Sequence record: LC473039.1
DNA length: 64,000 nucleotides
Strand: one strand, 5' to 3'
DNA from: Escherichia phage L27
Below are positions 18,691 through 19,476 of this stretch, piece by piece. Below the pieces are notes generated by a model. The model was given only the letters and a program-made list of their open reading frames with translations, did not search any database and was not told the DNA's origin. A program made the position numbers and the translations under genes. Numbering within the stretch: the stretch's first letter is position 1; each line of letters opens with the position of its first letter.

Positions 18691-19476
18691 ATGGGTATTG
18701 TAAAAATCATCAAAGGTGATATCTTTGACGCATTTGATAAAGGTAAGTTTGACATCATTGGTCATGGTTGTAACTGTATGAATTTAATGGGTGCAGGTAT
18801 CGCTGACAAGATTTCTAAACTTTACCCAAAAGCATATGAGACCGATACAGAAGTTTACCTCTATGCAGGTGGTATAGGTCACAAACCCTGTGAAAATTTA
18901 CTAGGTAATTTCTCTGTAGCACGTTTAAAACAAGGCCGTATAGCTAACCTTTACACTCAGCTTAAGACTGGTAAAGATGCCCGATACAGTGCTTTAGAGT
19001 CATCTTTGAAACAGCTTAACAGATACTGTGAAGTTAACCAGTTGAAGAAAGTTGGTTTACCTATGATTGGTGCAGGTATCGGTGGACTTGACCCTCAAGC
19101 TGTCACAGTTATCATTAATCAGGTGATGAAGAGTGTAGATGTTTATCTGTATGTCTATGAAGGAGAGATGTACAACGAGTTACAATCAGGTTGGAAGAAC
19201 TACTGTGAGCCAGAATACTTTGCAGGTGTAGTAACGTTCACAGATAATGCAGTTACCCTCTTCAGACGAAGAAAAGGTAAGATACATCAAAGTAACCCTC
19301 CGGTTGAAAAGATGTCTCTAAGTAACGCTCTAGTTACCCACCTGTCGAAGAGCAATCACAGGATTGCAGTAACATTTGGCAGCGATGCAGATACTTACAT
19401 CTATGCAAGAACTGATGAGGATATCAAGACGATTTTCTCTTCACCAGAAGTTACCTTCTTAGACGCAAAGAACTAA
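18691..19476 (+). CDS. macro-domain (ADP-ribose binding/processing) protein
   Basis: N-terminal IIKGDIFDAFDKGKFDIIGHGCNCMNLMGAGIADKI resembles macro-domain GDIT...D.IVNAAN...GGGV..AI signature. Confidence 0.5.
   Translation: MGIVKIIKGDIFDAFDKGKFDIIGHGCNCMNLMGAGIADKISKLYPKAYETDTEVYLYAGGIGHKPCENLLGNFSVARLKQGRIANLYTQLKTGKDARYSALESSLKQLNRYCEVNQLKKVGLPMIGAGIGGLDPQAVTVIINQVMKSVDVYLYVYEGEMYNELQSGWKNYCEPEYFAGVVTFTDNAVTLFRRRKGKIHQSNPPVEKMSLSNALVTHLSKSNHRIAVTFGSDADTYIYARTDEDIKTIFSSPEVTFLDAKN

Follow-up and report, generated by a model that had tools for sequence, protein, structure and literature searches.

In the 64,000-nucleotide stretch of Escherichia phage L27 DNA analyzed here (sequence record LC473039.1; hereinafter, the window), the plus-strand gene at 18691..19476 encodes a two-domain protein that, judging from its sequence, is a predicted catalytically competent macro-domain hydrolase of a Poa1p-like phage family (hereinafter, the H-N-Q family), which also includes Adpp, the ADP-ribose (ADPR) 1''-phosphate (ADPR-1''P) phosphatase of other phages, and Tk.4 of phage T4. 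The window also encodes both enzymes of NARP1, a pathway that reconstitutes nicotinamide adenine dinucleotide (NAD+). The explanation that we favor, tentatively, is that the macro enzyme is an active hydrolase converting ADPR-1''P to ADPR and supplying the phage's own NARP1, which would amount to a NARP1-AP pathway whose third gene is unlinked.

The open reading frame (ORF; ATG at 18691, stop codon ending at 19476, 261 amino acids) matches PHROG_335, “phosphatase”, over residues 1-260 (E=2e-112), and its 97% identical ortholog is bas63_0095 (gp95, “putative phosphatase”) of Escherichia phage JohannRWettstein (Bas63). The window derives from a Felixounavirus (Felix O1-like phage): a 2.5-kb segment centered on the gene is 90-95% identical to about 190 Felixounavirus genomes, with the best match (93.5%) to phage ESCO49; the orthologs in Felixounavirus records are labeled “putative phosphatase”, “O-acetyl-ADP-ribose deacetylase” or “hypothetical protein”. 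Compared with the ESCO49 ortholog, the macro part shows a ratio of nonsynonymous to synonymous substitution rates (dN/dS) of 0.024, and the C-terminal part, a ratio of 0.148; therefore, both parts are translated and constrained. The ORF is real and evolves under purifying selection. The macro domain itself is not new, given that annotations of the gene already exist for hundreds of genomes and that the family has just been characterized.

The Pfam Macro profile (PF01661) matches residues 25-141 with 32.3 bits against a gathering cut-off of 22 bits (E=1e-7). An AlphaFold2 (AF2) model of the protein, computed from 23 homologs, has a mean predicted local distance difference test score of 90.0 and a predicted template modeling (TM) score of 0.88, and shows a macro fold in residues 1-157 and, C-terminal to it, another domain that is mostly beta. 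A Foldseek search of the Protein Data Bank (PDB) produces 242 matches with E<=0.001, the top ones with target TM scores of 0.77-0.88; the search retrieves exclusively macro domains, led by TARG1 (3.9e-10), Poa1p (5.7e-10), DarG from T. aquaticus (7.7e-10) and DarG from M. tuberculosis (1.4e-9). Because all these structures score about 1e-9, the fold cannot choose among TARG1, Poa1p and DarG and was uninformative as an arbiter. The initial annotation of this DNA, made from the sequence alone, had predicted a macro domain, and this identification stands, well above a chance resemblance: the Pfam match, the modeled fold and the Foldseek results all agree with it, and the ADP-ribose-binding and catalytic residues are present, so that neither a non-macro fold nor a loss of ligand-binding residues, either of which would have refuted the prediction, was observed.

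In an alignment of 16 diverse family members, the residues G9, H25, N28, C29, M33, G36, A38, D52, G72, N86, Y88, Q90, P124, I126, G127 and G129 are invariant. The ADP-ribose-binding loops and the conserved asparagine and aspartate (G9-D10, N28, G34-A-G36 and I126-G-A-G-I-G-G132) are invariant or nearly so, and the motifs quoted in the initial annotation, namely GD (G9-D10), H25-G-C-N28-C and G34-A-G36-I-A, indeed correspond to such columns. The GxG loop is part of the ADPR-binding cleft (PMC9503650); G36 is invariant among the 16 members, and G34, which does not vary in the long forms, is shared by almost the entire family. The attribution of the macro signature to the N-terminal ~45 residues captured these motifs but was too narrow: the domain spans residues ~1-157, and the last ~104 residues comprise a separate conserved domain that had gone unnoticed. 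In the catalytic loop, H25 and N28 align with H24 and N27 of Adpp and with H23 and N26 of Poa1p, and N28 additionally aligns with N23 of the AdfM protein of phage PhiKZ. Human TARG1/OARD1 (PDB 4J5Q) is the top structural match (3.9e-10, TM 0.83-0.88) and the best PDB sequence match for residues 72-156, but the catalytic K84 and D125 of this enzyme are replaced by Q90 and G131, respectively, in the alignment. A TARG1/OARD1-type mechanism was rejected because this dyad is absent, and so was the label “O-acetyl-ADP-ribose deacetylase”.

The closest biochemical precedent comes from the analysis of aRES, a defense protein that phosphorolyses NAD+ to nicotinamide and ADPR-1''-phosphate, which is unusable for NARP1; the authors conclude that NARP1 on its own does not overcome aRES (Osterman et al., bioRxiv 10.64898/2026.01.28.702374). 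According to the same preprint, 15% of the NARP1 operons encode a Poa1p-like macro protein, Adpp, which removes the phosphate from ADPR-1''P, yielding ADPR and restoring the synthesis of NAD+, and the substitutions H24A and N27A in the Adpp of Vibrio phage Gary (KNV71_gp137) abolish the anti-aRES activity. The L27 protein shares with Gary Adpp the motif set HxxNC, GxG[IV]A, NxY[TG]Q and IG[AC]G[IL][AG], including the two mutated residues, and both genomes encode Adps and Namat, the enzymes of NARP1; however, the identity is only 27-36%, and Adpp consists of about 150-170 amino acids compared with 261 in the L27 protein. The similarity to the operonic Adpp of Vibrio phage Noelle is 29% identity with E=1e-14, and phages PaP1, JSF12 and Noelle, all included in Table S1 of the Adpp paper, are also among the tblastn matches of the L27 protein. 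The N-terminal 61 residues match, in the whole PDB, only yeast Poa1p (E~1e-3), in the segment “IHSCNC...GGGIA”. Poa1p (Saccharomyces cerevisiae, PDB 6LFQ) is an ADP-ribose 1''-phosphate phosphatase that aligns in fold with E=5.7e-10 and has the equivalent histidine and asparagine, and its H23A mutant chain shows the substitution precisely at the column of H25. Nevertheless, Poa1p is only ~23% identical overall and is a eukaryotic housekeeping enzyme that lacks the C-terminal domain.

The Prs-like/NAMPT-like gene pair in the window is orthologous to both enzymes of Bas63-type NARP1. The pathway was originally identified in Bas63, where genes 79-80 encode it: Adps uses ADPR and ATP to produce ADPR-pyrophosphate, which Namat then links to nicotinamide, yielding NAD+. 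Full-length alignment of the window's Namat with that of Noelle shows 37% identity (E=5e-103). Thus, the link between the macro protein and this module, which the initial annotation had offered as speculation, now has the strongest biochemical precedent, given that Adpp of the same family feeds NARP1. Supplying ADPR to NARP1 by accessory enzymes is an established theme, with RyDEP, a RyR-domain protein that converts cyclic ADPR (cADPR) to ADPR, being the second kind of feeder enzyme. The tested aRES systems come from E. coli, Klebsiella and Enterobacter; the hosts of Felixounaviruses are close to these sources, which counts in favor of an Adpp-like function.

The following scheme, in which the protein does the job of Adpp, appears the most likely. 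A host RES-type NAD+ phosphorylase, such as aRES, would convert NAD+ to nicotinamide and ADPR-1''-phosphate; the macro enzyme, as a member of the H-N-Q family that would take off a substituent on the 1'' carbon of ADP-ribose, would then hydrolyze ADPR-1''-phosphate to ADPR; and Adps and Namat would combine ADPR with nicotinamide to regenerate NAD+. This would be a “split” NARP1-AP pathway, with the third gene 7.5 kb away in its own transcription unit. The fold, the family membership, the conserved synteny, the occurrence of NARP1 in the window and the conservation of the two residues whose mutation inactivates Adpp are direct observations, whereas the substrate, the coupling to NARP1 and any role of the C-terminal domain are inferred.

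Macro relatives are detectable by tblastn in 2,795 of the 50,697 phage records, but only about 270 of these cover more than 80% of the L27 protein. Co-inheritance speaks in favor of the scheme: the counts of macro and Namat records in the phage database are close (199 vs 212 at >=90% identity, and 43 vs 46 at 60-80%). The block Namat - rIIA - rIIB - … - polynucleotide kinase (PNK) - … - macro is preserved even where the long-form macro proteins are only 34-46% identical to that of L27, namely in the phages Zyzzx (Hafnia), Michonne (Citrobacter) and Wc4-1 (Pectobacterium) and in two contigs from metagenomes. In a sample of 79 IMG/VR loci, 66 of them from outside Ounavirinae, the Ounavirinae loci with enough upstream flank all have Namat 7.5-7.8 kb upstream of the macro gene, with a single exception discussed below. 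A wider association is seen among the non-Ounavirinae loci, 11 of the 66 containing, at a distance of at most 10 kb, a gene that resembles Adps or Namat/NAMPT. In the distant Ounavirinae member Zyzzx, three small hypothetical genes lie between Adps and Namat (locus L005, 2852-4109), so that the two genes are not adjacent; therefore, the structure of the NARP1 operon varies within Ounavirinae.

Several observations weigh against the proposed function in NARP1. No NAD+ salvage gene is located near the remaining 55 of the 66 non-Ounavirinae macro loci in the sample; therefore, the macro family is enriched in the vicinity of NAD+-reconstitution genes without being tied to these. The exception among the Ounavirinae, the Felixounavirus contig L017 (IMGVR_UViG_3300045988_004931), has lost Adps and Namat but not the macro gene, which is intact, its macro domain being 98.7% identical: positions 1796-2543 of this locus (~750 bp, with a 171-aa HNH-type ORF and a 92-aa ORF) replace the equivalent of window positions 8448-11233, and the flanks are intact, so that L017 is a natural NARP1-minus, macro-plus variant. 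The co-occurrence of the macro gene with NARP1 within Ounavirinae may reflect mere vertical inheritance. The macro gene lies outside the distance of two genes from Adps or Namat that was used in the Adpp paper, and the operon argument made for Adpp is inapplicable because ~12 ORFs and at least two terminator-like hairpins intervene. Adpp lacks an equivalent of the extra C-terminal domain, and S30 of Poa1p, the residue mutated in PDB 6LFT, is not conserved (L32 in the L27 protein). Finally, the best-scoring characterized homolog is not an Adpp but T4 Tk.4, which protects against DarTG2 (82 bits vs 52-76 for the Adpps); to our knowledge, T4 does not encode NARP1, and no NARP1 genes were seen at the tk.4 locus. 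In a bootstrapped neighbor-joining tree, the long forms comprise a clade (88%), but the deeper nodes are supported at 5-39% only, with the NARP1-linked Adpps polyphyletic and interleaved with the Tk.4 clade, so that placement of the L27 protein with either Adpp or Tk.4 was abandoned.

The relationship with Tk.4 underlies the foremost alternative, which we consider possible although rather unlikely, namely that the L27 protein is a Tk.4/AdfM-like anti-DarTG2 factor whose macro domain removes ADP-ribose from thymidine in DarT2-modified phage DNA and whose C-terminal domain might help in binding DNA or the toxin. Of the counter-defense roles put forward in the initial annotation, the one directed at DarT thus has a direct precedent, whereas no support was found for degradation of cyclic ADPR (Thoeris) signals. 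In the HIDEN-SEQ preprint (10.1101/2025.11.20.689424), tk.4 is the only T4 gene needed on DarTG2, being the single significant match in a transposon screen, and a clean knockout sensitizes the phage; the protein was named AdfM, with DNA de-ADP-ribosylation inferred from its similarity to DarG, so that the evidence is genetic and the mechanism is deduced. Tk.4 shares with the L27 protein 34% identity (82 bits), the H/N/Q signature and a macro part of similar length but is a single-domain protein of 155 amino acids (locus L004, 298-765). Retention of the macro gene in the NARP1-less L017 and the layout with an N-terminal macro domain followed by a C-terminal extra domain, which loosely parallels DarG, are also compatible with this alternative. 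The two roles are not exclusive because one 1''-hydrolase could do both.

Similarity to DarG also speaks for this alternative. The L27 protein resembles DarG in the macro class, in the fold (about 1e-9) and in the PADLOC DarG hidden Markov model (HMM) match of its macro part (48 bits, E~2e-13), but the same model yields 133 bits for PhiKZ AdfM, 67 for TARG1, 52 for the Adpp of PaP1, 45 for Gary Adpp and 36 for T4 Tk.4. The DarG-HMM score was rejected as a discriminator of anti-DarT members because Gary Adpp, a proven phosphatase, outscores the anti-DarTG2 protein Tk.4. Against the NCBIfam DarG model NF048014, the L27 protein scores 48.6 bits, far under the cut-off of 250 bits, and matches profile positions 2-152 of 338, i.e., the macro half only; given also the lack of the catalytic lysine, which is replaced by the invariant Q90, and of the DarT-binding domain, membership in DarG was rejected. 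The proven DNA-deribosylating enzymes employ a lysine (K84 in TARG1, K80 in DarG, the “FPTK” motif in PhiKZ AdfM), in contrast to the invariant glutamine of the L27 protein. The catalytic role of K80 in T. aquaticus DarG, and its equivalence to TARG1 K84, were reportedly described by Jankevicius and colleagues in 2016. PhiKZ gp104 AdfM, for which removal of ADP-ribose from DarT2-modified DNA has been demonstrated in vitro (Cell Rep 2026, PMC13309987), belongs to the macro class and shares the asparagine N23 but is of the DarG type, without the histidine and with the DarG/TARG1-type lysine. The name AdfM has been given by two groups to two types of macro proteins, T4 Tk.4 (H-N-Q) and PhiKZ gp104 (DarG type with the catalytic lysine), which score about 21 bits against each other; between these two, biochemical proof of DNA de-ADP-ribosylation exists only for PhiKZ gp104. 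A search of the literature for Felixounaviruses or Bas63 tested against DarTG or aRES retrieved nothing.

The pairwise scores of the L27 protein (82 bits with T4 Tk.4, 76 with Adpp of PaP1, 70 with phiPsa374, 68 with phiAbaA1 and 52 with Gary), along with those of Tk.4 (77 with Gary and 84 with phiAbaA1), form a continuum; PhiKZ AdfM scores only 26 bits against the L27 protein. We conclude that Adpp, Tk.4 and the L27 protein belong to a single family with a common active-site signature. Neither sequence nor fold tells which of the two published activities, or both, the L27 protein has.

The other alternatives fare worse. Hydrolysis of a different small ADP-ribose conjugate, such as O-acetyl-ADPR, histidine-ADPR or a cyclic-ADPR immune signal, seems improbable. 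This possibility is suggested by the “O-acetyl-ADP-ribose deacetylase” label of ortholog records, by the similarity of the C-terminal half of the macro domain, which is greatest with OARD1/TARG1, and by a bioinformatic survey arguing that phage macro domains mostly act on soluble ADPR derivatives (PMC9503650). However, the K84/D125 dyad is absent, the label was apparently transferred by similarity alone, no experimental precedent was found in the macro family for O-acetyl-ADPR, histidine-ADPR or cADPR substrates, and the literature yielded a single NARP1-linked enzyme that degrades cADPR, which contains a RyR domain rather than a macro domain. We assign quite a low probability to a housekeeping role in RNA repair, whereby a Poa1p-like activity, along with the nearby PNK, would clear ADPR-1''P (or a cyclic precursor) released by a 2'-phosphotransferase in tRNA repair. 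Macro domains have been linked to KptA-2H RNA repair in the same survey (PMC9503650). The N-terminal motif of the L27 protein is Poa1p-like, a PNK gene (15947..16642) is part of the conserved block, and RNA ligase genes flank the Adpp operon of Noelle; nevertheless, the annotated block of the phage and those of its relatives show no 2'-phosphotransferase of the KptA/Tpt1 type, although not every ORF was scanned. Furthermore, T4-type PNK/ligase repair yields no 2'-phosphate. The proximity of NAD+/ADPR genes and RNA-repair genes is recurrent, as seen in the window, with the PNK in the conserved block of the macro gene, and in Noelle, where the Adps-Adpp-Namat operon is bracketed by two RNA ligase genes (locus L002, 386-1312 and 7814-8468). 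Finally, a non-catalytic ADP-ribose binder, i.e., a sponge or a reader, is highly improbable because, although some macro domains only bind (PMC9503650), the histidine and the asparagine that are needed for catalysis in homologs are invariant and purifying selection on the macro domain is very strong.

The C-terminal ~100 residues are confined to Ounavirinae-like phages, as judged from tblastn searches of phage records, whereas the macro domain is widespread. No similarity of this domain to DarG chains or to DNA-binding folds was found, which counts against the anti-DarTG2 alternative, and a DarG-type C-terminal DarT-binding domain was tested for and is not present in the protein. A metagenomic homolog of the macro domain (P0030, 339 amino acids, 35% identity) is fused to a different C-terminal region containing Pfam PF20274 and represents a second, independent C-terminal fusion in the macro family. 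A more encompassing proposal, which we regard as unlikely, is that the H-N-Q family would use a single active site against two unrelated host defenses, RES-type NAD+ phosphorolysis, countered through dephosphorylation of ADPR-1''P, and DarT2-mediated DNA ADP-ribosylation; that the Ounavirinae C-terminal domain would bind a host defense protein or DNA, in the same way as the C-terminal domain of DarG sequesters DarT; and that Bas63-type phages would be complete NARP1-AP phages.

The positions of the relevant features are summarized in the table below. The initial annotation placed the macro gene in the same early region as the NAD+ module, which holds only loosely: the strand is the same, but the gene starts 7.5 kb downstream of Namat, and at least two terminator-like hairpins lie between. 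The intervening segment contains about 12 ORFs, including rIIA, rIIB, lysin, PNK, spanins and five small ORFs, unlike the arrangement of Adpp, which is encoded inside the NARP1 operon. In Bas63, similarly, the macro protein is gp95 and NARP1 is gp79-80, so that these genes do not adjoin each other. The hairpin located 3' of the macro gene has a folding energy of -24.4 kcal/mol (z=-6.4 vs shuffled sequences). Given the terminator-like hairpins around 17170..19476, the macro gene is the last gene of its own unit and does not belong to the NARP1 operon. A search of the co-transcribed small genes for functional clues showed that all of them belong to PHROGs of unknown function.

Features of the macro gene and of its NARP1-containing neighborhood in the window
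Feature	Position	Strand	Basis or remark
Adps (PRPS-like ADPR pyrophosphokinase) of NARP1	8466..9362	+	Pfam Pribosyltran, Pribosyl_synth; 41% identity to Noelle Adps; syntenic with bas63_0079
Namat (NAMPT-like nicotinamide ADPR transferase) of NARP1	9408..11189	+	Pfam NAPRTase, NAMPT_N; syntenic with bas63_0080
Terminator-like hairpin	15334-15357		
Terminator-like hairpin, upstream boundary of the unit 17170..19476	17129..17156	+	Hairpin at 17129-17146; terminator annotated at the equivalent place in the Michonne record
Complete coding sequence, two-domain macro protein	18691..19476	+	ORF listing; PHROG_335 match; 97% identity to bas63_0095
Macro domain, residues 1-157	18691..19161	+	Pfam PF01661, AF2 model, Foldseek, dN/dS 0.024
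H25-G-C-N28 codons, catalytic-loop motif HxCN	18763..18774	+	H25 and N28 invariant in 16 members
G34-A-G36 codons, GxG loop binding ADP-ribose phosphates	18790..18798	+	Conservation; loop described in PMC9503650
N86-L-Y-T-Q90 codons	18946..18960	+	N86, Y88 and Q90 invariant; TARG1 “LITKK” aligns with “LYTQL”
I126-G-A-G-I-G-G132 codons, second phosphate-binding loop	19066..19086	+	I126, G127 and G129 invariant; alignment to TARG1 “IGCGLDR”
C-terminal orphan domain, residues 158-261 (one helix, six or seven beta-strands, final helix)	19162..19473	+	
Intrinsic-terminator-like hairpin with U-run, closing the unit of the macro gene	19506..19557	+	Hairpin at 19506-19547; 17-bp stem

Immediately upstream of the macro gene is a plus-strand 66-aa ORF (18490-18690, PHROG_2210) with two cysteine pairs (CKDC … CEGCGC) that resemble a zinc ribbon; its stop codon abuts the macro start (…TGT TAA ATG…), so that the two genes may be translationally coupled, and a 201-bp coding sequence (CDS) is found at the same place in ESCO49, Michonne and Bas63 (bas63_0094). 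Directly after the terminator of the macro gene, in a ~800-bp non-coding gap (19477-20281) that is devoid of CDS also in the ESCO49 record, positions 19550-19810 contain four or five imperfect ~34-nt direct repeats (“…TCATTTTCAAA.TGTGCAG…”), which are 62-100% identical and spaced by 39-82 nt; a second pair of 34-nt repeats, 157 nt apart, is present in the same gap. This array could represent phage promoters or binding sites of a regulator. Elsewhere in the window, there is a plus-strand cluster of 24 tRNA genes (36664-42446), which is typical of Felix O1-like phages.

What is new here is, first, the orphan C-terminal domain on the long form of the macro family; second, the location of an Adpp-family gene away from the NARP1 operon in the same group of phages that led to the discovery of NARP1; and third, the realization that “AdfM” of T4 and Adpp belong to one family. 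The published survey, which covered only two genes on either side of NARP1, lists none of these phages, and Table S1 of the Adpp paper includes no Felixounavirus and no Escherichia or Salmonella phage (bioRxiv 10.64898/2026.01.28.702374). The anti-DarTG2 “AdfM” of T4 and the ADPR-1''P phosphatase Adpp were described independently but share the family and the catalytic signature, which turns dual specificity into a testable question. The results also provide for a better annotation of the gene in about 250 Ounavirinae genomes, where it is currently denoted “phosphatase”, “O-acetyl-ADP-ribose deacetylase” or “hypothetical protein”. Surveys limited to the neighborhood of two genes on each side undercount NARP1-AP if gp95 acts as an Adpp in trans. 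Should the Bas63-type phages indeed be NARP1-AP phages, Ounavirinae would add about 13% (a rough figure, with all Namat/NAMPT-like records in the 2025 phage database as the denominator) to the reported 15% of NARP1 phages that possess the phosphatase, roughly doubling this fraction. For the Bas63-type Felixounaviruses, the model phages of the NARP1 discovery, a gp95 that functions as Adpp in trans would mean that they are already equipped against aRES.

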